Below are positions 1,192 through 12,137 of a DNA stretch of 64,000 nt, in pieces. Positions within the stretch are counted from its first letter, which is position 1; every line of letters starts with the position of its first letter. Position numbers and translations under genes: made by a program. Below the pieces are notes generated by a model, which worked only from the letters and a program-made list of their open reading frames with translations, was not told the DNA's origin and ran no database searches. The stretch is from Escherichia phage REP1, in the sequence record OQ174500.1. One strand, given 5' to 3'.

Positions 1192-2160
1192 ATGAAAACT
1201 GTAACTATCAATAAGGGTATCTACTTCGGTAAAGAAATCTCTGGAACTTTTGAGCTCTTAGGTGAATGGTTCCCAGATAATGCTCCGGTAGATGCACAAG
1301 GAGATGGTAAAGTTTTTGTTGAAATTGACGGTAAGCGTCGCGGTGTTTGGGTTTACAAATCAGACATTTCATATGATGGTGTAAAAGTTGAAGAAGTTAA
1401 AGAATCATATGAAGATATGAAAACCCGCATTAATAAAAGATTTAATGTTATGGGAATGATGACGAATGGTATTATTAACGGAAACATTCGTTCATTAATT
1501 ATCTCGGGAGCAGCAGGTATTGGTAAAACGTATTCTTTAGATAAAGCTTTAAATAAAGCAAATGATATTGGATACATTGAGTATAAAAGCATTAATGGTA
1601 AAATCTCTGGTATCGGTCTTTATGAACAGCTTTGGAATAATCGTGAAGAGAATTCTGTCCTTTTGATTGATGATGTGGATGTTTTCTCTGATATGGACAT
1701 TCTTAATCTTCTGAAAGCTGCTCTGGACACTGGAGAGACCCGTAAAGTCTGCTGGAGCACCGCATCTTCTTACTTAGAAGAAAAAGGCATTGAGCGTGAG
1801 TTTGAATTTAAAGGAACGATTGTTTTTATCACAAACGTTGACATTGACCGCGAATTAGACCGTGGTACTAAACTTGCTCCACATTTACAAGCATTAGTGT
1901 CCCGCTCAGTTTATTTGGATTTGGGTGTTCACACTAATGAAGAAATTATGGTCAGGGTTGAAGATGTTATTCTTTCAACTGACATGATGCAAAAGCGCGG
2001 TCTTTCTGATGAAGAAACTTATAAAGCATTATCATGGATGAAAGTCAATGTTAATCGTTTACGCAATGTTTCACTGCGTACTGCTCTTTATCTTGCTGAC
2101 TTTATTATGACCGACAAAAACGGTTGGGAAGAAATCGCTGAGGTTACTCTTCTGAAATAA
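1192..2160 (+). CDS. P-loop AAA-type ATPase
   Basis: Walker A GAAGIGKT, Walker B VLLIDDVD; start set to ATG 1192 after terminator, promoter and GGAG RBS (track start 1075 reads through them). Confidence 0.7.
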   Translation: MKTVTINKGIYFGKEISGTFELLGEWFPDNAPVDAQGDGKVFVEIDGKRRGVWVYKSDISYDGVKVEEVKESYEDMKTRINKRFNVMGMMTNGIINGNIRSLIISGAAGIGKTYSLDKALNKANDIGYIEYKSINGKISGIGLYEQLWNNREENSVLLIDDVDVFSDMDILNLLKAALDTGETRKVCWSTASSYLEEKGIEREFEFKGTIVFITNVDIDRELDRGTKLAPHLQALVSRSVYLDLGVHTNEEIMVRVEDVILSTDMMQKRGLSDEETYKALSWMKVNVNRLRNVSLRTALYLADFIMTDKNGWEEIAEVTLLK

Positions 2161-2249
2161 TTCATAAGAGGCCTTCTATGACAAAAAGGCAGTTCAGAAA
2201 TAGATTATATGGACTGCCATCAAAAAGATGACTAGAATTAAACTGGTAA

Positions 2250-2564
2250 ATGGAGGTAATGATGTTATACTCAAAGGCTCGTGAAATTTATGAAACTAAA
2301 ATTAAAGAAGCAGTATTTCAGTTCGCAACAACGATGCGATGGACAAATGATTGGGAATATTCAAAAAATCATAAGAAGCCCCTGGTGACAAGAAAGGCTC
2401 ATATGTTAGTGTTAATAGACCGTGAGCAGATTAAAGCCCGAGAAGCCCTCCAGAATCATAAAAAGGCTGCCTTTGAATGGTTTATGGATAACACTGCTCC
2501 TGAGACTAAGAAAGCAGTGAGCGCGTGGTTCAGTGGAAAAAATTGTGAAAGAAGTTTCTTTTAG
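2250..2564 (+). CDS. hypothetical protein
   Basis: 104-codon ORF; GGAGG RBS; true start may be ATG 2259 or 2262. Confidence 0.5.
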   Translation: MEVMMLYSKAREIYETKIKEAVFQFATTMRWTNDWEYSKNHKKPLVTRKAHMLVLIDREQIKAREALQNHKKAAFEWFMDNTAPETKKAVSAWFSGKNCERSFF

Positions 2565-2566
2565 TT

Positions 2567-2596
2567 GTTTACAAGACCGTTCCTCTGTGGTACTAT
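2567..2596 (+). promoter_or_regulatory. T4-type early promoter
   Basis: GTTTAC, 18 bp, TGgTACTAT; same leader family as the element at 1128. Confidence 0.6.
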
Positions 2597-2624
2597 ACAA
2601 CTATCAACTACGGAGGAACAGAAA

Positions 2625-3152
2625 ATGAATGCTAAAGATATTTTCAACTTGGTAAACTACAATGATGGTAAATTTAAATCTGAAGCTCAAAGCAAGTTCT
2701 TTAATGATGTCTCAATCGGTGGTGAAATCACGGTTGATGGAGGACAAATTTACAAATCTCGTTGGAATTGGATCGTTATTATTGATGAGATTGGTATCGT
2801 AGAAATTTATAAAAATACGAATAAAAATCGTACATTACACTGGTCTCGTGATACTAACGAACAGTACAAAAAGGATAAAGCATCTAAATTATCTCGTGTA
2901 ACTCAAGAAGATATTGAGTTCATCAAGAAAGATATTTTGATGTATGATAACTTAATTGCTGAAGAGCAAGCTGTTATTGATAAATTTGATGAGATTAAAG
3001 CTTCTCGTGAAATTCCTGATTTTATGAAAGAATCAGTAAATGAACGATACACTCTCATTTCAGAGCGTATTGAAACTTACAAAAAGCAAAGAGCTGAACG
3101 CCAAAATACTCTTCGGAAGTTTGAAGAACGGTTAAAGACGGTACTCGCATAA
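2625..3152 (+). CDS. hypothetical protein
   Basis: 175 aa from ATG 2625 preceded by GGAGG; track start 2565 lies inside the promoter. Confidence 0.6.
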   Translation: MNAKDIFNLVNYNDGKFKSEAQSKFFNDVSIGGEITVDGGQIYKSRWNWIVIIDEIGIVEIYKNTNKNRTLHWSRDTNEQYKKDKASKLSRVTQEDIEFIKKDILMYDNLIAEEQAVIDKFDEIKASREIPDFMKESVNERYTLISERIETYKKQRAERQNTLRKFEERLKTVLA

Positions 3153-3207
3153 CCGCTTTATACCAAGGATGGTATAATGGTTCTAAGCCCTTTTAATTGA
3201 GATTATT

Positions 3208-3615
3208 ATGAAACAGTTGATAATTAAAAGATTGAATTTATTGATATGTTGTTTATGCGTAGTAGTTGCATATGGTTATTATGCTATTAATGATTATATG
3301 CATTATAAAGATTATGATGTTACTGTAGTTAATACCTTTACAGGAACTCAAGGAAAGGGGTCTAGTTTATCGTTTATTGCCGTATATGAACTCAAAGACG
3401 GTTATAGATTTAGCGAATATATTTCCCCAGAGATGTATTCATCAATAGAAAAAGACGATAATATTACTGTAAGTTTACGTCCTTTCGACGTAAAACAGAC
3501 ATTGTTTGATAATATTGTTTGGTTCTTTGGAATGGTATTAGTTCAATCTGTATGCGGTGCTTATATAGTCTTTTCCATCATATTCTGCGTATTTAGTAAA
3601 ATTGAAATTGAGTGA
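3208..3615 (+). CDS. predicted membrane protein
   Basis: 135 aa, hydrophobic N- and C-terminal segments, very AT-rich. Confidence 0.55.
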   Translation: MKQLIIKRLNLLICCLCVVVAYGYYAINDYMHYKDYDVTVVNTFTGTQGKGSSLSFIAVYELKDGYRFSEYISPEMYSSIEKDDNITVSLRPFDVKQTLFDNIVWFFGMVLVQSVCGAYIVFSIIFCVFSKIEIE

Positions 3616-3622
3616 GGAAAAT

Positions 3623-4510
3623 ATGTCAGTAGTAATTAATAATGTCAATGCAGTAATTAAATCTTTAGTTAATAAAAAATTGAATGAATGGACTGTACTT
3701 CGTCGTGGAGAGCCAGATAAATTTTTTCATAGATTTAACCCAACTTTGGATTTGAATGTTATTGACAGAGATGTTCATGCAGAAATTTTAGATAAGTTTA
3801 AAGTTGATATTGGATTTGGATTAGAAAAACATTTACAGCGAACAAACGGGTCTGGAATGGGTTTATCTAATCGCATCATGAAAGCCCTTAATAAAATTGG
3901 AGCATTGTCTCGCATTAACGCGAGTGAAATTCTTCGCAATTATAATAAAGGATATGACCTTTATGGTCGACTAATGCCGAAATTGTCATTCGATCAAATG
4001 ATTGCGGATTTGTGGGAAAATCAACGACGATTATTAGCATTAGGTGCTCGATTGGCTAAAGGTCTAGATAAACAAATGATTTTTAAGACCAATAATACAG
4101 AAGACCTTAAATGCTTTAAATTTAGTATTCGCGGAGATGATTATTACATCAGAGCTCGCTCTACAGATTATGTTAATATGGGACATCATCTCTGTTTAGC
4201 TTTTGAAGTTTTAAAAGAAACCGGAACATTAGAATATTCGTCTGGTGCAAAATGCCCGATTGGTTCAAGTTGTATTTTAATTTATCGCCCGGATGAATCC
4301 AGTTCATCTAAATTACCTACAAAACCTGTACCAGTTCGTAGTAACGAAAAACATTCTGAACAAATTGATTATTTTAATAAGCAAATTGAAGAGCTGAATA
4401 TTTCTATTCAACAGTATGACGATGAAATTTTCAGACTATCTGGATTGAGTAGTAAAGCTAAATCTGAGCGTGAAAAATTAATTAAAATTGTTGATTTACT
4501 TAAATCTTAA
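3623..4510 (+). CDS. hypothetical protein with C-terminal coiled-coil tail (array member 1 of 4)
   Basis: ATG 3623 after GAGGAAA RBS; C-terminal heptad-like amphipathic segment. Confidence 0.6.
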   Translation: MSVVINNVNAVIKSLVNKKLNEWTVLRRGEPDKFFHRFNPTLDLNVIDRDVHAEILDKFKVDIGFGLEKHLQRTNGSGMGLSNRIMKALNKIGALSRINASEILRNYNKGYDLYGRLMPKLSFDQMIADLWENQRRLLALGARLAKGLDKQMIFKTNNTEDLKCFKFSIRGDDYYIRARSTDYVNMGHHLCLAFEVLKETGTLEYSSGAKCPIGSSCILIYRPDESSSSKLPTKPVPVRSNEKHSEQIDYFNKQIEELNISIQQYDDEIFRLSGLSSKAKSEREKLIKIVDLLKS

Positions 4511-4518
4511 GGAACACC

Positions 4519-5544
4519 ATGAAAACTCGTTCTCAAATTGAAGATATGGTTCGTAATGCCAGCTATACTCGTGATGTTATGACATTTTTGTGCCAAAATA
4601 ATTTAGACCCTGATAAAGTTAATCGTGATATTCACTTTAAGTATATGAATAGCAGTGAATGGTTACGTCATTTTAGTAAAGCGGGATATATTACACAAAT
4701 GACTGCTCGTGAGCAGCTCACCGATTTCTGTAAAACTATTGATTATAAAAATCCTTTATTTGTTCAAGGCGTTGGTCAGAGTAAGGTTGATTTATCAACA
4801 GGATTTTTTAATCCAAATCATTATCGTCTTGAATGGAGATTTATTGCTCTATTCCGTAAACAATTAAAGCAAATTTTGTCTACTGCTAGTCGATTAAAAG
4901 GTTCTGATATTAACTTAAAGAATCTTAAATTTGATGGTTATACTCTTCAGATGGAAGTAAGACCATTAAAGGAAAATAATAGAACTGCGCGAATTAGCTT
5001 TAAGCCTAATACTAAAAATTCTCTTTCAATTTGTGAATGCCTTAAATCACAGTTGACAGAAGCATTTAAGTATATGGATGTTGTTGCTGCTGTTCAATCT
5101 AAGATTTTACCTCGTTTTGAACGATTTAAATTAGACACAACAACATATGAACTTGATATGGTTGTTTCATTTAAATATGATTTTTTGAGAAAGGATGAAG
5201 TCCCGCAAGAGAAAAAGCAGGAAGTACAAGATAACTTAAATTTAAATTTATCCAATTACTTATCAAACGATCCTAAATTTTGGATGTATAGTTCAGGTAA
5301 TAAAGATGCATGGAAATTTAATAAAGTGAATTTTCTTCCTATTGAAAATCCGAGTCTTAAACCTGTTGAAAAATGGCATGCAGATGCGATTGAGAAGTCT
5401 ATCAAGGCAGTAGATGATGAACTCGTTAAAGCAACTAATGAAGTGCTAGAAGCTGAAAAGATGTTGGAAAAAGCTCAAGAAAAAGTCAAAAATCTTACGA
5501 AGCAACGTTCTAAACTGAACAATGCACTAAATGCACTGAACTAG
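4519..5544 (+). CDS. hypothetical protein with C-terminal coiled-coil tail (array member 2 of 4)
   Basis: 341 aa; C-terminal segment VLEAEKMLEKAQEKVKNLTKQRSKLNNALNALN. Confidence 0.6.
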   Translation: MKTRSQIEDMVRNASYTRDVMTFLCQNNLDPDKVNRDIHFKYMNSSEWLRHFSKAGYITQMTAREQLTDFCKTIDYKNPLFVQGVGQSKVDLSTGFFNPNHYRLEWRFIALFRKQLKQILSTASRLKGSDINLKNLKFDGYTLQMEVRPLKENNRTARISFKPNTKNSLSICECLKSQLTEAFKYMDVVAAVQSKILPRFERFKLDTTTYELDMVVSFKYDFLRKDEVPQEKKQEVQDNLNLNLSNYLSNDPKFWMYSSGNKDAWKFNKVNFLPIENPSLKPVEKWHADAIEKSIKAVDDELVKATNEVLEAEKMLEKAQEKVKNLTKQRSKLNNALNALN

Positions 5545-5573
5545 TTTACATTGCCACAAGGATGTGGTATAAT
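5544..5573 (+). promoter_or_regulatory. T4-type early promoter
   Basis: GTTTAC, 18 bp, GTGGTATAAT; near-identical copy at 51393. Confidence 0.6.
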
Positions 5574-5601
5574 GTTCTTACTTTCTACTGAGGAGATTAT
5601 T

Positions 5602-6603
5602 ATGACTCGTAACGAATATATCAAATCATTCAATAGCGTTATTGATGATAAAGCTATACCGATGTTTGGTCAAAATATCGTTCTTTCTATTATCAATCAA
5701 TGGCTCAATAGTGTTGATGCAAGTATTGTTTCTTCTACTAAATTTATTCATGAAATTCGTAAAATTTCTAGCCGTGTAGATAAAGATGTTATCAAGAAAA
5801 CCTTTAAAGAGTCTCGTCTTCTTTCATATTTGGTTAATCGGGATATTCTTGGTAATTTTGGGAAAGAAATTAAACGAACCAAAGATGTAGTAGGATATAA
5901 TTGGTTCGGTGATGTTAATTCTTATCATCTTAATAATAAAGAAGACCCTGAGAATATTTTTACTCGTCGTTGGATTAGTAATTTCAGACTTTTCAAAGGA
6001 CAGATTCTAAAATCAGCTTCTAAATTATGTTATGGCGATTATCGTCAAATTCATCCTTTGGCTTCTGATATGATTATCATAAAAGAATATGAACTTGATA
6101 AAAATAAAGTATCTATTTTTGTGAATTATGGATTTTTTACACCAGAAACTAACCAAAAGAACATTAATAAATTTTTCTCAATTGCTAGCACTATAACTCG
6201 TCAATTAGAGACCGCATTACTTTGTATGGAAACAGTAGAAAATATTCATACATATCCTTTTAAGAATATATGCGGCTGGGAAGGATATAAAATTGTAATT
6301 AGTCTTCGTGAAGTGAAATGTACTTATTCACCTACTAGTAAAGAAATTTACCAACAAAAATGTGATGAAATTGTGAATACTCCTAAAGAAGAAACTACCC
6401 TTGAGGAACTAATGGATAATCTTGATGATTCGCCTGAACCGGCAGAAATTCGTCCAGAAGTTATTGCACTAGAAAAAGCTTATAAAGAAGTTCTAGAAAT
6501 TTCTAATAAAGCGCAGAAAGAATATGAGCAGGCTAAAAGGATTTGGGAAGAATCTGTTAATCGTCTTGATCGTTTAGAACAGGCTTTACAGTTAATTAAG
6601 TAA
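5602..6603 (+). CDS. hypothetical protein with C-terminal coiled-coil tail (array member 3 of 4)
   Basis: 333 aa from ATG 5602 (GAGGAG RBS); track start 5551 is TTG inside the promoter. Confidence 0.6.
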   Translation: MTRNEYIKSFNSVIDDKAIPMFGQNIVLSIINQWLNSVDASIVSSTKFIHEIRKISSRVDKDVIKKTFKESRLLSYLVNRDILGNFGKEIKRTKDVVGYNWFGDVNSYHLNNKEDPENIFTRRWISNFRLFKGQILKSASKLCYGDYRQIHPLASDMIIIKEYELDKNKVSIFVNYGFFTPETNQKNINKFFSIASTITRQLETALLCMETVENIHTYPFKNICGWEGYKIVISLREVKCTYSPTSKEIYQQKCDEIVNTPKEETTLEELMDNLDDSPEPAEIRPEVIALEKAYKEVLEISNKAQKEYEQAKRIWEESVNRLDRLEQALQLIK

Positions 6604-6657
6604 AATTTAAAGCCAAGGATGGCTCGGAGTATAAATCATTAACCAAGTGAGAAGAAC

Positions 6658-7587
6658 ATGAAAACTCGTAAACATTATATTGATTATTTTGACAGTCTTA
6701 TTACTAAACACCGTAATTATCAGATCGGGCACAGAGCAGTAATCAATAATATTCTTCGTGATTTCCTTCAATATGTTGGTCAGGAAAATCATATCTGTAA
6801 AGATACTCAAAACGCTTATTCTCATTCGTTAGGCAATTTGCTTGAATGGTTTAAACGTTCTCGTATGTTATCTTCTACTGTAGCTCGTGAGAACATTAAA
6901 AACTTTATGAAGCCGAGCTTCATTAAATCTGAGACATCTATAACCGATTTGGTTGAATTTACTATTGTTAATGATGTTAAAAAGACCCATTTGGCTGATT
7001 GGTTATCTACCATTCCTGAAACTACATTTGCTGATAAGTTCGCTTGTCAATTCAATGACCAAGTGAATATGCTTTTTAAGCATGCTCGTAAACTATTTAC
7101 CGCGGGCGATGACCGTACAAATACAGTTCATGTTAAGGACTGGGTTATTGCTGATGAAGTAACACACAAGCCAGGTGGTTCATCAGTATTAATTAATATC
7201 CAGGTTCCTTATTATTACTCACGTAATCTTGGCACCATGACAGCTAAAGAAATTAATAAGCACAACAAAACTATTCGTTCGTTGTCTTATAAACTCCGCA
7301 TGATGTTAAAAATTATGGACGTAGTGGAAATGTATGACGAAACCGAAGATAATGGTTCAATGTTATACAGTTCACGCATTCTAATTAAACTGAAGAACCC
7401 TAATACATATAAGACAGTTGTAAAAGAGCCTAAAGTAGAAAAGGTTGATAACCTGAGCGAAGAACGTGAATATCTCAATGCTCGTTTGATTGAAGTTGAA
7501 GCCCAGATTGCCGAACACACCAAATTGTTAAAAGCTCTTAATGCAAAAGCAAATGGTTTACGTAATGCTATTGAGGTATTGAAATGA
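6658..7587 (+). CDS. hypothetical protein with C-terminal coiled-coil tail (array member 4 of 4)
   Basis: 309 aa; C-terminal segment [33 protein letters not shown]. Confidence 0.6.
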   Translation: MKTRKHYIDYFDSLITKHRNYQIGHRAVINNILRDFLQYVGQENHICKDTQNAYSHSLGNLLEWFKRSRMLSSTVARENIKNFMKPSFIKSETSITDLVEFTIVNDVKKTHLADWLSTIPETTFADKFACQFNDQVNMLFKHARKLFTAGDDRTNTVHVKDWVIADEVTHKPGGSSVLINIQVPYYYSRNLGTMTAKEINKHNKTIRSLSYKLRMMLKIMDVVEMYDETEDNGSMLYSSRILIKLKNPNTYKTVVKEPKVEKVDNLSEEREYLNARLIEVEAQIAEHTKLLKALNAKANGLRNAIEVLK

Positions 7588-7973
7588 AAAAGCGTTTATT
7601 AGAAGACATTGCAGCTTCAAGTAATTCCAGTTTAATTAAAATTATTATGGCTGGTGAGGAAGATGATATGGAAATGCGTGGAAAGATTCACGGCTGCGAC
7701 GATTTAGATTTTAAACCTCCAGCATGGGATGCTATTATGGCTATGGTTGAACGCCGCGAAAGGGCTTCTAAAAACGTTCCTAATTGCCCTGAATGCGGTA
7801 CTGAACAAGTTCAATTGATTAACTGGCGTAAACCAGAGCTTGAATATAAATGCCGTCAATGTAAACATAAATTCAGTAAGCATGCTCCGGAAATGGTTAA
7901 ATTGCCTGACTCTACTGAGTTCTTTAAAGAACTTGTGAGTGTTCAACCAATGCCTAATAATATTTTGGATTAA
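7584..7973 (+). CDS. zinc-ribbon protein
   Basis: 129 aa; CPECG...x18...CRQC; start overlaps upstream stop (ATGA). Confidence 0.55.
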
Positions 7974-7975
7974 AA

Positions 7976-8218
7976 ATGACCAAGCGTAAAGAATATATGG
8001 AGGCTGCTGAAAAGGCAGTCCGTGAATTAGCAATAGCTTATTATAATGAACACGGTAAATTTCCTGATAGATACAGCGTGCTTAAATCTGCTTTAACTCG
8101 TTCATACAAAAATATGCTATCAGAAGTAAGTGATATTATATACAAACATAAAGAACAAACAGGCCAAAGTCTTGATTACGATGAGACTTTTAAACAAGTA
8201 CTAGGAATTAAGGAATAA
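7976..8218 (+). CDS. hypothetical protein
   Basis: 80-codon ORF tightly packed with neighbours. Confidence 0.5.
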
Positions 8219-8219
8219 T

Positions 8220-8483
8220 ATGTTTAAAGTATATGGTTATGATAGCAACATCCATAAATGTGTGTATTGTGATAATGCAAAGCGTCTTTTGACCGTGAAG
8301 AAACAGCCGTTTGAATTTATCAACATTATGCCGGAAAAAGGTGTTTTTGATGATGAGAAAATCGCTGAGCTTCTGACTAAACTAGGTCGTGATACTCAAA
8401 TCGGCTTAACAATGCCCCAAGTATTTGCTCCTGATGGAAGTCATATTGGTGGATTTGACCAACTGCGAGAATATTTTAAATGA
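8220..8483 (+). CDS. nrdC: phage thioredoxin/glutaredoxin
   Basis: 87 aa, CVYC active site; matches my recollection of T4 NrdC. Confidence 0.85.
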   Translation: MFKVYGYDSNIHKCVYCDNAKRLLTVKKQPFEFINIMPEKGVFDDEKIAELLTKLGRDTQIGLTMPQVFAPDGSHIGGFDQLREYFK

Positions 8484-8695
8484 TGCTCGAAGGAACTGAC
8501 TATATTCATGATTACCGCGGAAGCGCGGTATATGTAGGTGATGAAGTTGCAGTTTATTATGGGTATGGAACTTTGATGACAGCAAAGGTTATTCAAATTA
8601 AAAATAATCGTGCTAAACTTGAAGTTTATTATTCTAACGGTGAAAAGTCTATTTCTAAGTGGAAATACGGCGATTGTATGGTCAAACTGGGGTAA
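8480..8695 (+). CDS. hypothetical protein
   Basis: 71-codon ORF; ATGA overlap with nrdC stop. Confidence 0.5.
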   Translation: MMLEGTDYIHDYRGSAVYVGDEVAVYYGYGTLMTAKVIQIKNNRAKLEVYYSNGEKSISKWKYGDCMVKLG

Positions 8696-9849: not shown

Positions 9850-10323
9850 ATGTTATTGACTGGCAAATTATATAAAGAAGAAAAACAGAAATTTTATGAT
9901 GCACAAAACGGTAAATGCTTAATTTGCCAACGAGAACTAAATCCTGATGTTCAAGCTAATCATCTTGACCATGACCATGAATTAAATGGACCAAAAGCAG
10001 GAAAGGTACGTGGATTGCTTTGTAATCTCTGTAATGCCGCAGAAGGTCAAATGAAGCATAAATTTAATCGTTCTGGCTTAAAGGGACAAGGTGTTGATTA
10101 TCTTGAATGGTTAGAAAATTTACTTACTTATTTAAAATCCGATTACACCCAAAATAATATTCACCCTAACTTTGTTGGAGATAAATCAAAGGAATTTTCT
10201 CGTTTAGGAAAAGAGGAAATGATGGCCGAGATGCTTCAAAGAGGATTTGAATATAATGAATCTGACACCAAAACACAATTAATAGCTTCATTTAAGAAGC
10301 AGCTTAGAAAGAGTTTAAAATGA
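9850..10323 (+). CDS. 49: endonuclease VII (Holliday junction resolvase)
   Basis: 157 aa; CxxC...HLDHDHELN...CNLCN His-Cys box. Confidence 0.8.
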   Translation: MLLTGKLYKEEKQKFYDAQNGKCLICQRELNPDVQANHLDHDHELNGPKAGKVRGLLCNLCNAAEGQMKHKFNRSGLKGQGVDYLEWLENLLTYLKSDYTQNNIHPNFVGDKSKEFSRLGKEEMMAEMLQRGFEYNESDTKTQLIASFKKQLRKSLK

Positions 10324-12137
10324 CAATTGAAAAAGAAATTGAAGGATTGATTCATAAAACTAATAAAGACCTTTTAAACGAGAATGCTAATAAAGATTCT
10401 CGTGTTTTTCCAACTCAACGGGACCTTATGGCTGGTATTGTGTCTAAACACATTGCCAAAAATATGGTCCCGTCTTTTATTATGAAAGCGCATGAAAGCG
10501 GAATTATTCATTTCCATGATATTGATTATTCCCCTGCTCTTCCATTTACTAATTGCTGTTTAGTAGATTTAAAAGGAATGCTTGAGAATGGATTTAAATT
10601 AGGCAATGCTCAAATTGAAACGCCTAAATCGATTGGTGTTGCTACTGCAATTATGGCACAAATTACTGCACAAGTTGCTTCCCATCAATACGGCGGAACG
10701 ACTTTTGCTAATGTAGATAAAGTACTTTCTCCTTATGTTAAACGCACCTATGCAAAACATATTGAGGATGCAGAAAAATGGCAAATCGCTGATGCGTTGA
10801 ATTATGCTCAATCCAAAACAGAAAAAGATGTATACGATGCATTCCAAGCTTATGAATATGAAGTAAATACTCTCTTTAGTTCAAACGGACAAACGCCTTT
10901 TGTAACAATTACATTTGGTACGGGAACTGACTGGACTGAACGAATGATTCAGAAAGCAATTCTGAAAAATCGTATTAAAGGTCTTGGTCGTGATGGAATA
11001 ACTCCTATTTTCCCTAAGCTTGTTATGTTTGTTGAAGAAGGTGTTAATCTTTATAAAGACGATCCGAACTATGATATTAAACAGCTTGCTCTAGAGTGCG
11101 CAAGCAAAAGAATGTATCCTGATATTATTTCAGCTAAGAACAATAAAGCTATCACCGGCTCATCTATTCCTGTTTCTCCAATGGGTTGTCGTAGTTTCTT
11201 GAGTGTGTGGAAAGATTCGACTGGCAATGAAATTCTTGATGGACGTAATAATCTCGGTGTTGTAACACTGAATCTTCCTCGTATCGCGTTAGATTCTTAT
11301 ATTGGAACACAATTCAATGAACAGAAATTTGTTGAGCTATTTAATGAACGAATGGATCTGTGTTTTGAAGCATTGATGTGTAGAATTAGTTCCTTAAAAG
11401 GAGTTAAAGCGACTGTTGCTCCTATTCTTTACCAAGAAGGTGCATTCGGGGTTCGTCTTAAACCTGATGACGATATAATTGAGTTATTTAAAAATGGTAG
11501 AAGTTCAGTGTCTCTAGGATACATTGGTATTCACGAATTGAATATTCTTGTCGGTCGTGATATTGGACGAGAAATTTTAACTAAAATGAATGCTCATCTT
11601 AAGCAGTGGACTGAAAGAACCGGATTTGCTTTTAGTTTATATTCGACTCCTGCTGAAAACCTTTGTTATCGCTTCTGTAAACTTGATACAGAAAAATATG
11701 GAAGTGTAAAAGATGTTACCGATAAAGGCTGGTACACTAACAGTTTCCACGTTTCAGTAGAAGAAAATATTACTCCGTTTGAAAAGATTTCTCGTGAAGC
11801 GCCATATCATTTCATTGCGACAGGTGGTCACATTTCTTATGTTGAACTTCCTGATATGAAAAATAACTTAAAGGGTCTTGAGGCCGTATGGGATTATGCT
11901 GCACAACATTTAGATTATTTTGGTGTTAACATGCCAGTAGATAAATGTTTTACATGTGGAAGTACCCATGAAATGACTCCTACTGAAAATGGATTTGTTT
12001 GTTCTATTTGTGGAGAAACTGATCCTAAAAAGATGAACACAATAAGAAGAACATGTGGTTATTTGGGAAATCCGAACGAACGCGGATTTAATCTCGGCAA
12101 AAATAAAGAAATCATGCATAGGGTTAAGCACCAATGA
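10320..12137 (+). CDS. nrdD: anaerobic ribonucleoside-triphosphate reductase
   Basis: 605 aa; C-terminal zinc ribbon CFTCGS...CSICG and glycyl-radical motif RTCGYLG; uninterrupted. Confidence 0.9.
   Translation: MTIEKEIEGLIHKTNKDLLNENANKDSRVFPTQRDLMAGIVSKHIAKNMVPSFIMKAHESGIIHFHDIDYSPALPFTNCCLVDLKGMLENGFKLGNAQIETPKSIGVATAIMAQITAQVASHQYGGTTFANVDKVLSPYVKRTYAKHIEDAEKWQIADALNYAQSKTEKDVYDAFQAYEYEVNTLFSSNGQTPFVTITFGTGTDWTERMIQKAILKNRIKGLGRDGITPIFPKLVMFVEEGVNLYKDDPNYDIKQLALECASKRMYPDIISAKNNKAITGSSIPVSPMGCRSFLSVWKDSTGNEILDGRNNLGVVTLNLPRIALDSYIGTQFNEQKFVELFNERMDLCFEALMCRISSLKGVKATVAPILYQEGAFGVRLKPDDDIIELFKNGRSSVSLGYIGIHELNILVGRDIGREILTKMNAHLKQWTERTGFAFSLYSTPAENLCYRFCKLDTEKYGSVKDVTDKGWYTNSFHVSVEENITPFEKISREAPYHFIATGGHISYVELPDMKNNLKGLEAVWDYAAQHLDYFGVNMPVDKCFTCGSTHEMTPTENGFVCSICGETDPKKMNTIRRTCGYLGNPNERGFNLGKNKEIMHRVKHQ

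Follow-up and report, generated by a model that had tools for sequence, protein, structure and literature searches.

Which function could have brought together four consecutive phage genes whose products all end in an amphipathic, heptad-like helix? The question is raised by positions 3,623 to 7,587 of a 64,000-nucleotide stretch of DNA from Escherichia phage REP1 (sequence record OQ174500.1), referred to here, at its full length, as the window. An earlier note, made from the sequence alone, had described four open reading frames (ORFs) in this region as a tandem, diversifying family of paralogs with a common oligomerisation or docking module. The four ORFs lie where the note had placed them, on the + strand: ORF A at 3623-4510 (295 aa), ORF B at 4519-5544 (341 aa), ORF C at 5602-6603 (333 aa) and ORF D at 6658-7587 (309 aa). 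The paralogy of the array is well supported, and in each of the four proteins a floppy linker connects a globular head to a conserved tail of heptad repeats. On balance, we lean towards reading the array as an expanded early counter-defence or host-range family, in which variable target-binding heads are carried on a conserved coiled-coil tail.

Identity of the four genes

The window belongs to a Tequatrovirus, a T4-like phage, and is read against the direction of the T4 map. Phage vB_Eco_T-01 shares 98.2% identity with positions 3000-8000, which find matches in 738 phage records, and the flanks of the array encode NrdC.11, NrdC.10, the NrdC thioredoxin, endonuclease VII and NrdD. By position and similarity, ORFs A, B, C and D are the T4 genes nrdC.6, nrdC.5, nrdC.4 and nrdC.3, respectively, an identity that had escaped the earlier note together with the published anti-Dsr1 function of NrdC.5. 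ORF A is 97.6% identical to T4 NrdC.6, ORF B 93.9% to NrdC.5 and ORF C 97.6% to NrdC.4, whereas ORF D, with only 60.6% identity to T4 NrdC.3 between flanking genes that reach 94-100%, represents a divergent allele.

Longer versions with a TTG start are also listed for ORF A (from 3602) and ORF C (from 5551); preference goes to the ATG codons at 3623 and 5602, because a Shine-Dalgarno sequence, GAGGAA for ORF A and GAGGAG (5587-5601) for ORF C, lies just upstream of each. ORFs B and D are the two that begin with MKTR, as had been noticed, and ORF C begins with MTRNEY. A capsid-targeting sequence, considered on account of the resemblance of MKT starts to those of T4 internal proteins, was rejected because such starts are common here (they are found in the nrdC.10 and nrdC.11 ORFs); what we take to be the cleavage motif of the T4 prohead protease, L/I-x-E near residue 10, is missing from the N-termini of the array.

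In the databases the four ORFs are spread over several families. ORF A belongs to phrog_2257 (E=1.1e-152), and all 105 of its homologues carry the precomputed Pfam label PF26899. ORF B matches the Pfam family DUF7235 (PF23882) along the whole model (positions 1-307 of 307; 411.4 bits against a gathering cut-off of 30 bits, E=3.4e-123) and also phrog_2351; for ORFs A, C and D no match to DUF7235 was obtained at E≤1. Both ORF C (E=3.4e-168) and ORF D (E=9.2e-116) match phrog_1435 over its full length, and the homologues of ORF D carry the precomputed Pfam label PF26897. Families phrog_2257, phrog_2351, phrog_1435 and DUF7235 are all of unknown function.

Paralogy of the array

Family alignments were built from the homologues of each ORF together with members from other phage genera, and the resulting profiles were compared by hhalign. 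Pairwise BLASTP among the four ORFs recovers the relation between C and D only (E=2e-7). Profile-profile comparison links C to D (P=1e-12), ORF B to the C+D profile (P=6e-7) and ORF A to the B+C+D profile (P=6e-5) and to the C+D profile (P=2.7e-4), whereas the ten reversed-profile controls all gave P values of at least 0.086. The matches always fall on equivalent columns. Those aligned in every significant match form the most conserved core of the superfamily, which in ORF A reads 'LSRINASEILRNYNK ... FDQMIADLW..QRRLLALGARLAKG' (3905-4063, + strand) and whose counterparts in the multiple alignment, also on the + strand, occupy 4690-4902 in ORF B, 5821-6036 in ORF C and 6868-7107 in ORF D. Two motifs, '..sR.LS...A+..L.NF.K..' and then 'F...f....+..iL..a.+L..Gd', line up in the four proteins.

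Further support comes from sequences outside the window. The single family member of Enterobacter phage Entb_43 (Karamvirus) acts as a bridge, since it is recognised by the hidden Markov model (HMM) of ORF A at E=7e-10 and by the BCD HMM at E=4e-7, both values being per comparison. The BCD profile also matches a protein of Citrobacter phage Moon (~1e-6) and one of Acinetobacter phage DLP3 (~3e-5). When the C+D profile was run against 1.84 billion representatives, only eight matches were returned, all of them close relatives, and no new bridges appeared. Identity between the heads of the paralogs is about 10-25%. Homology is certain among ORFs B, C and D and very probable for ORF A, and the proposal of a tandem paralog family is upheld by the hhalign P values, by the Karamvirus bridge and by the agreement in secondary structure between A and B described below. 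Families PF26897/phrog_1435 and PF26899/phrog_2257, which the databases keep separate, are here joined with DUF7235.

A scan of the window found no further paralogs. NrdC.8 was considered as a fifth member and rejected: its hhalign P values were at least 0.0065, the matches ran from tail to tail only, and the terminal motif of the array proteins is absent. The NrdC.8-like ORF itself (2625-3152, 175 aa) has a helical tail of heptad-like character at aa 136-175 (z=2.9) and is far better conserved across genera than the genes of the array.

Head, linker and tail

The architecture first proposed, an N-terminal domain of roughly 250 aa followed by a helix of 40-50 aa, stands as regards head and helical tail. 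Its sizes do not, as the heads measure about 221-247 aa and the tails 46-60 aa, and a linker of 14-60 aa had been missed. In ORF A the head spans aa 1-223, a low-confidence linker aa 224-244 and the tail aa 245-295; in ORF B the three parts are aa 1-221, 222-281 and 282-341. In ORFs C and D, where the boundaries are alignment-based, they are aa 1-240, 241-286 and 287-333, and aa 1-247, 248-261 and 262-309, respectively.

The hydrophobic periodicity of all four tails, which extends over at least four heptads, peaks between 3.43 and 3.50 residues, the heptad value rather than 3.6, with z from 2.8 to 5.2, in agreement with the amphipathic, heptad-like character ascribed to them from the sequence. 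The tail of ORF A (4355-4507, + strand as for the others), a helix-turn-helix ending in LIKIVDLLKS, has a period of 3.46 (z=4.2) that is reached by 4 of 1000 composition shuffles. The corresponding values are 3.50 (z=4.9; 1 of 1000) for ORF B (5362-5541, ending in LNNALNALN), 3.50 (z=5.2; 0 of 1000) for ORF C (6460-6600, with stutters, ending in LEQALQLIK) and 3.43 (z=2.8; 19 of 1000) for ORF D (7441-7584, ending in LRNAIEVLK). A cruder score based on heptad positions a and d is significant for ORFs A, B (z=4.6) and D (z=2.9) and not significant for the stuttering tail of ORF C, so that the proposed coiled coil is backed by periodicity in all four proteins and fails the a/d score in one. Many weak, sub-threshold Pfam coiled-coil matches also land on the tails.

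The similarity of the tails extends to their very ends. All four proteins terminate in L..[AI][LIV]..[LI][KN](x)-stop, a motif that is found at the end of no other ORF among the 140 of at least 60 aa in the window and that has no further occurrence in 15,687 residues of + strand ORFs. Because the motif was derived from these four tails post hoc, only its absence elsewhere counts as evidence. Counted from the C-terminus, the heptad register is common to the four tails. Their C-anchored similarity lies above 5000 of 5000 full shuffles and is reached by 76-121 of 5000 register-preserving shuffles (1.5-2.4%), which indicates a modest similarity beyond the register itself.

AlphaFold2 (AF2) models, which cover ORFs A and B as monomers, place the tail of ORF A in two helices (245-271 and 277-294; predicted local distance difference test, pLDDT, ~76-93) that form a helix-turn-helix hairpin, and the tail of ORF B in one helix (282-340, pLDDT 64-89). 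Ahead of the tail, pLDDT drops below 50 in both models (at 227-242 in ORF A and at 222-278 in ORF B). As a sequence feature, the tails are supported as a common module by their shared register and by being the most conserved part of every orthologue set, and to that extent the earlier idea of a common module holds; the formation of oligomers is a prediction.

Conservation, copy number and rearrangement

Comparison across T4-like phages showed that the family adjoins nrdC throughout the Straboviridae, in one to four copies. Tequatrovirus has four copies, Gaprivervirus and Dhakavirus have three and are without nrdC.3, and Mosigvirus has three and is without nrdC.4. One family member was identified at the locus in each of Karamvirus, Moonvirus and an Acinetobacter Lazarusvirus, and those of Moon and DLP3 (Moonvirus and Lazarusvirus) are situated just upstream of nrdC. 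Viable isolates without one or two members exist. In Gaprivervirus and Dhakavirus, a hydrophobic ORF of 71 aa, probably a membrane protein, lies between nrdC.6 and nrdC.5 (4844-5059 in locus L002 and 4857-5072 in L003, with equivalents in L005-L007); it has no counterpart in the window.

Within orthologue sets, the tail was more conserved than the head in 14 of 14 pairs. Between genera, identity is 59-71% in the tail and 31-39% in the head for ORF A, and 61-63% and 27-48% for ORF C; the orthologues of ORF D share 75-83% of the tail and 55-77% of the head. In all four families the mean conservation of the tail at core, flanking and outward heptad positions equals or exceeds the mean of the head. 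The ratio of non-synonymous to synonymous substitution rates (dN/dS) is 0.04-0.29 over the whole genes of the array, indicating purifying selection, compared with 0-0.09 for well-conserved neighbouring genes, among them nrdC.1, nrdC.8-11, nrdC, gene 49 and nrdD and 0.32 for nrdC.7, which encodes a membrane protein; positive selection across whole genes was not found by this gene-wide measure. The family can therefore be called diversifying in the sense that its heads change faster than its tails, its copy number varies from one to four and its alleles are swapped, but not in the sense of selection, which is purifying.

Three rearrangements, all natural and in frame, were found. In Salmonella phage Manna (locus L004, 5215-6252), aa 1 to ~270 of NrdC.6 are fused in frame to aa 263-333 of NrdC.4, at a junction with the microhomology QQ..DEI that joins the head and first tail helix of NrdC.6 to the linker and tail of NrdC.4; Manna is without nrdC.5. 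The NrdC.6 of Shigella phage Sf25 (P0058) carries an internal duplication of aa 176-258 that brings its length to 378 aa, and in a metagenomic protein (P0056) the middle of NrdC.5 is joined to the C-terminal half of NrdC.3. The synonymous divergence (dS) of ORF D from T4 nrdC.3 is ~1.1; its identity to the Mosigvirus allele (Shf125875) is 77% in the head and 83% in the tail, and Mosigvirus records match the ORF D stretch at 83-86% nucleotide identity. Because ORF D has diverged from T4 and is nearer to Mosigvirus, between flanks that are conserved, it looks like a whole nrdC.3 allele exchanged between genera.

Structure models and fold searches

The AF2 model of ORF A reached a pLDDT of 79 and a predicted template-modelling score (pTM) of 0.64. 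A mixed B+C+D alignment was not used for modelling because MAFFT misplaced the central helix. In the models of ORFs A and B the order of elements is the same, namely helices, a long helix, a hairpin, a helix, a hairpin, the linker and the tail, and when the two were laid on the sequence alignment their three-state secondary-structure agreement (Q3) was 0.69, against 0.41±0.07 for shifted controls. A Foldseek search of the ORF A model against BFVD returned its own family first and then full-length, uncharacterised Straboviridae proteins of 300-370 aa (E from 3e-7 to 2e-3). Two BFVD entries, A0A2S1GM98 of Cronus and A0A0K1LMI4 of Merlin, were matched by both models. The stretch of Yersinia phage fHe-Yen9-01 that was examined is without the 313-aa protein matched by the fold search.

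The absence of an obvious catalytic motif, already remarked upon, was borne out when the four proteins and 32 diverse family members were scanned with Pfam, NCBIfam and PADLOC. These libraries gave only DUF7235 for the B family and coiled-coil noise, and no enzyme family, defence family or catalytic motif matched any of the four proteins. Profile searches of the heads against the PDB gave nothing useful, neither a relative of solved structure nor a known fold.

Two weaker resemblances were set aside. The ORF B model weakly matches tail-completion and tail-terminator proteins in BFVD (E from 5e-3 to 3e-2); mimicry of a tail protein by the head was not pursued because that model is of low confidence and the model of ORF A is without such matches. 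Residues 30-86 of ORF D (6745-6915) bear a weak likeness to the SAM-like DNA-binding domain found at the N-terminus of tyrosine recombinases. A SAM-like/XerD N-terminal domain was rejected, since the match scored 17.3 bits in NCBIfam, where the cut-off is 279 (E=0.002), and E=0.11 in Pfam; the resemblance is present in only 2 of the 32 family members and is probably due to chance.

Function and a proposed counter-defence role

Three points come from published work: that T4 NrdC.5 acts against Dsr1, that the genes are dispensable in the laboratory host and that they are expressed early. A T4 deletion mutant regains the ability to form plaques on cells with dsr1, a sirtuin defence gene of ECOR17, when T4 nrdC.5, described as an early gene, is supplied from a plasmid (PMC9391042; Srikant, Guegler & Laub, 2022, eLife). 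ORF B is the orthologue of this gene, at the same position and with a full-length match to the same family, DUF7235; ORFs A, C and D, which are related to it as distant paralogs, share the head-linker-tail plan but have no DUF7235 match. Paralogy, domain plan and mechanism are not described in that paper, and full-text literature searches for nrdC.3, nrdC.4 and nrdC.6 gave no functional study and no account of paralogy. According to the HIDEN-SEQ supplement, T4 nrdC.3-6 tolerate insertions at 96-100% of sites, and the nrdC.1-6 block has been lost from a viable genome-reduced T4 (PMC9825161).

Neighbouring genes also counteract defence: NrdC.1 inhibits Septu and Gp49.2 inhibits OLD. Both lie with the array between nrdC.11 and gene 49, in one accessory block of early and non-essential genes, but they are single genes rather than a paralog array (NrdC.1 has 80 aa here) and the window scan found no homology between them and the array. 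A functional analogy is possible with DSAD1 of phage SPbeta, which, according to published abstracts, is non-enzymatic and neutralises the SIR2-domain NADase DSR2 by binding; sequence or fold similarity of the array proteins to DSAD1 was not found.

The reading that we favour can be put as follows. The array is one gene family that expanded by tandem duplication in T-even-like phages. Its head, a fast-evolving alpha/beta domain of ~220-247 aa in which hairpin-helix-hairpin comes after a set of helices at the N-terminus, would recognise one specific target in the host, which in the case of NrdC.5 would be the Dsr1 sirtuin defence, met directly or indirectly (Dsr1 itself or something upstream). 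The flexible linker would give reach, and the coiled coil of the tail would make the protein multivalent, so that several heads could engage oligomeric defence proteins. New specificities would arise from duplication, allele exchange and recombination between heads and tails. We infer that counter-defence activity extends to ORFs A, C and D, that heads bind their targets directly and that tails self-associate; being paralogs of the Dsr1 antagonist NrdC.5, nrdC.3, nrdC.4 and nrdC.6 are good counter-defence candidates.

A number of observations weigh against this reading. Functional data concern one of the four proteins, in the form of the T4 allele that is 94% identical to ORF B, and the Dsr1 rescue experiment does not show direct binding (PMC9391042). 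In the part of HIDEN-SEQ that was consulted, the gene named as an anti-defence hit on the hosts tested is nrdC.1, and not nrdC.3, nrdC.4 or nrdC.6. The link of ORF A to the family is the weakest, since its direct hhalign comparisons with B and with C were not significant. Structural comparison carries the argument part of the way: the models of A and B share the order of their elements, but that of B is poor (pLDDT 57.5, pTM 0.34), because its alignment averages 91% identity, and the template-modelling scores (TM-scores) are low (0.23-0.52), so that structural agreement leans on secondary structure and on these scores. Finally, the surface positions of the tail (b, c and f) are nearly as conserved as the core, ORF C having 0.86 there against 0.85 at a/d, and the AF2 monomer folds the tail of ORF A into an intramolecular hairpin, possibly a self-contained binding surface. 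A conserved tail surface fits docking to a partner at least as well as simple self-association.

Alternative explanations

The last two points lead to the main rival, in which the tail does not self-associate but docks on one common partner, a host machine or an early phage protein, while the heads deliver different activities. We regard this tentatively, as possible rather than probable. It agrees with the fact that the four paralogs have one exact C-terminal motif and one heptad register in common, with the conserved solvent-facing positions, with the compact hairpin of the ORF A tail and with the retention of the tail in phages with a single identified copy. Between paralogs, however, only the heptad pattern and the last ~9 residues are alike, and the small fraction of register-preserving shuffles that reach the similarity has been given above; no partner is known, and the paralog tails differ greatly for a single shared docking site.

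A second possibility, to which we attach about the same limited weight, is that NrdC.5 alone counters defence and that the other proteins serve other early roles in host takeover, for example in nucleic-acid or membrane processes. The functional record is empty for ORFs A, C and D, and the low identity between paralogous heads means that their targets may be unrelated. The SAM-like resemblance at the N-terminus of ORF D would also suit such a role, although that match to recombinases falls far short of the cut-off and is confined to two members. Against this explanation, all four genes bear the same evolutionary signature, in that they are dispensable, vary in copy number, tend to swap alleles and evolve fast in the head, and the region holds three other counter-defence genes.

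Somewhat less likely still is a bolder version of the favoured reading, a modular platform driven by recombination, in which interchangeable decoy or inhibitor heads would each address one immune sensor, the tail would dock to a hub or bundle the proteins, and NrdC.3, NrdC.4 and NrdC.6 would each neutralise a distinct defence system. The NrdC.6-NrdC.4 chimera of Manna would then exemplify a head-tail swap.

It is improbable that the paralogs join through their tails in one hetero-oligomeric complex bearing three or four different heads. In its favour, the genes sit side by side in one direction and are probably co-transcribed, with a gap of 8 nt between ORFs A and B and a promoter-like site before C and D, and register and terminus are common to the tails; but several genera with one identified copy keep the tail, which makes this arrangement less likely, viable isolates do without one or two members, and nrdC.5 was the sole gene on the rescue plasmid, with the caveat that the paralogs remaining in the mutant were not established. 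The results already contradict the idea of four unrelated genes that are adjacent by chance and happen to have helical tails rich in lysine and glutamate: BLASTP sees C-D only and Pfam and PHROGs place the four ORFs in three separate families, yet the profile-profile P values (1e-12 to 6e-5) stand far from the reversed controls, a bridging sequence ties ORF A to the rest, the order of secondary structure is the same, and the terminal motif is unique to the four.

Transcription signals and neighbouring genes

An early promoter had been proposed for one member of the array. A promoter-like site of the sigma-70/T4-early type, TTTACA-17-TATAAT with TG before the second hexamer (5545-5573, + strand), matches the consensus at 11 of 12 positions and lies directly upstream of ORF C, within the 57-nt gap that precedes it; it is the best match within 2000-8600. 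A second promoter-like site, TTTACA-17-TACTAT with TG (2568-2596, 9 of 12), is found just upstream of nrdC.8. Overall, promoter-like sites are no more numerous in this region than in shuffled sequence, and both sites are matches to the consensus only.

The spacer between ORFs C and D (6603-6657) contains a short stem-loop (GCCAAGGATGGC) and then GGAG. In early mRNAs, GGAG is the motif cut by T4 RegB, and judging from their letters the GAGGAG of ORF C and the GGAG of this spacer may be RegB sites.

Downstream of the array, the start of an NrdC.2-like ORF (7584-7973, 129 aa) overlaps the end of ORF D by 4 nt. Its alignment with NrdC.2 of T4, Shfl2 and Manna (78-88% identity) is limited to the first ~99 aa, the C-terminal ~30 aa being different in this phage, and the protein gives weak, sub-threshold zinc-ribbon (CxxC...CxxC) matches. 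Further on, nrdD (10320-12137) is one unbroken ORF of 605 aa, as in Shfl2, while the records of T4 and Manna annotate it as separate pieces on either side of a homing-endonuclease gene. Because its nrdD ORF is unbroken, this phage is without the homing-endonuclease insertion in nrdD.

Significance for the T4-like phages

The genes themselves, the three database families and the phenotype of NrdC.5 were already known, and the array is not a new kind of system. What is new is the union of nrdC.3-6 with the single-member proteins of other Straboviridae in one head-linker-tail superfamily, the recognition of the tail as its most constrained part, and the natural chimeras. Three database families of unknown function thereby merge into one superfamily that spans the Straboviridae, and its evolution can be seen in tandem expansion from one to four copies, in the exchange of whole alleles between genera and in in-frame chimeras. 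The head-linker-tail plan makes both the role of the tail and the specificity of the heads testable. If nrdC.3, nrdC.4 and nrdC.6 are indeed paralogs of NrdC.5, they would provide three specific counter-defence candidates in T4, the best-studied phage.

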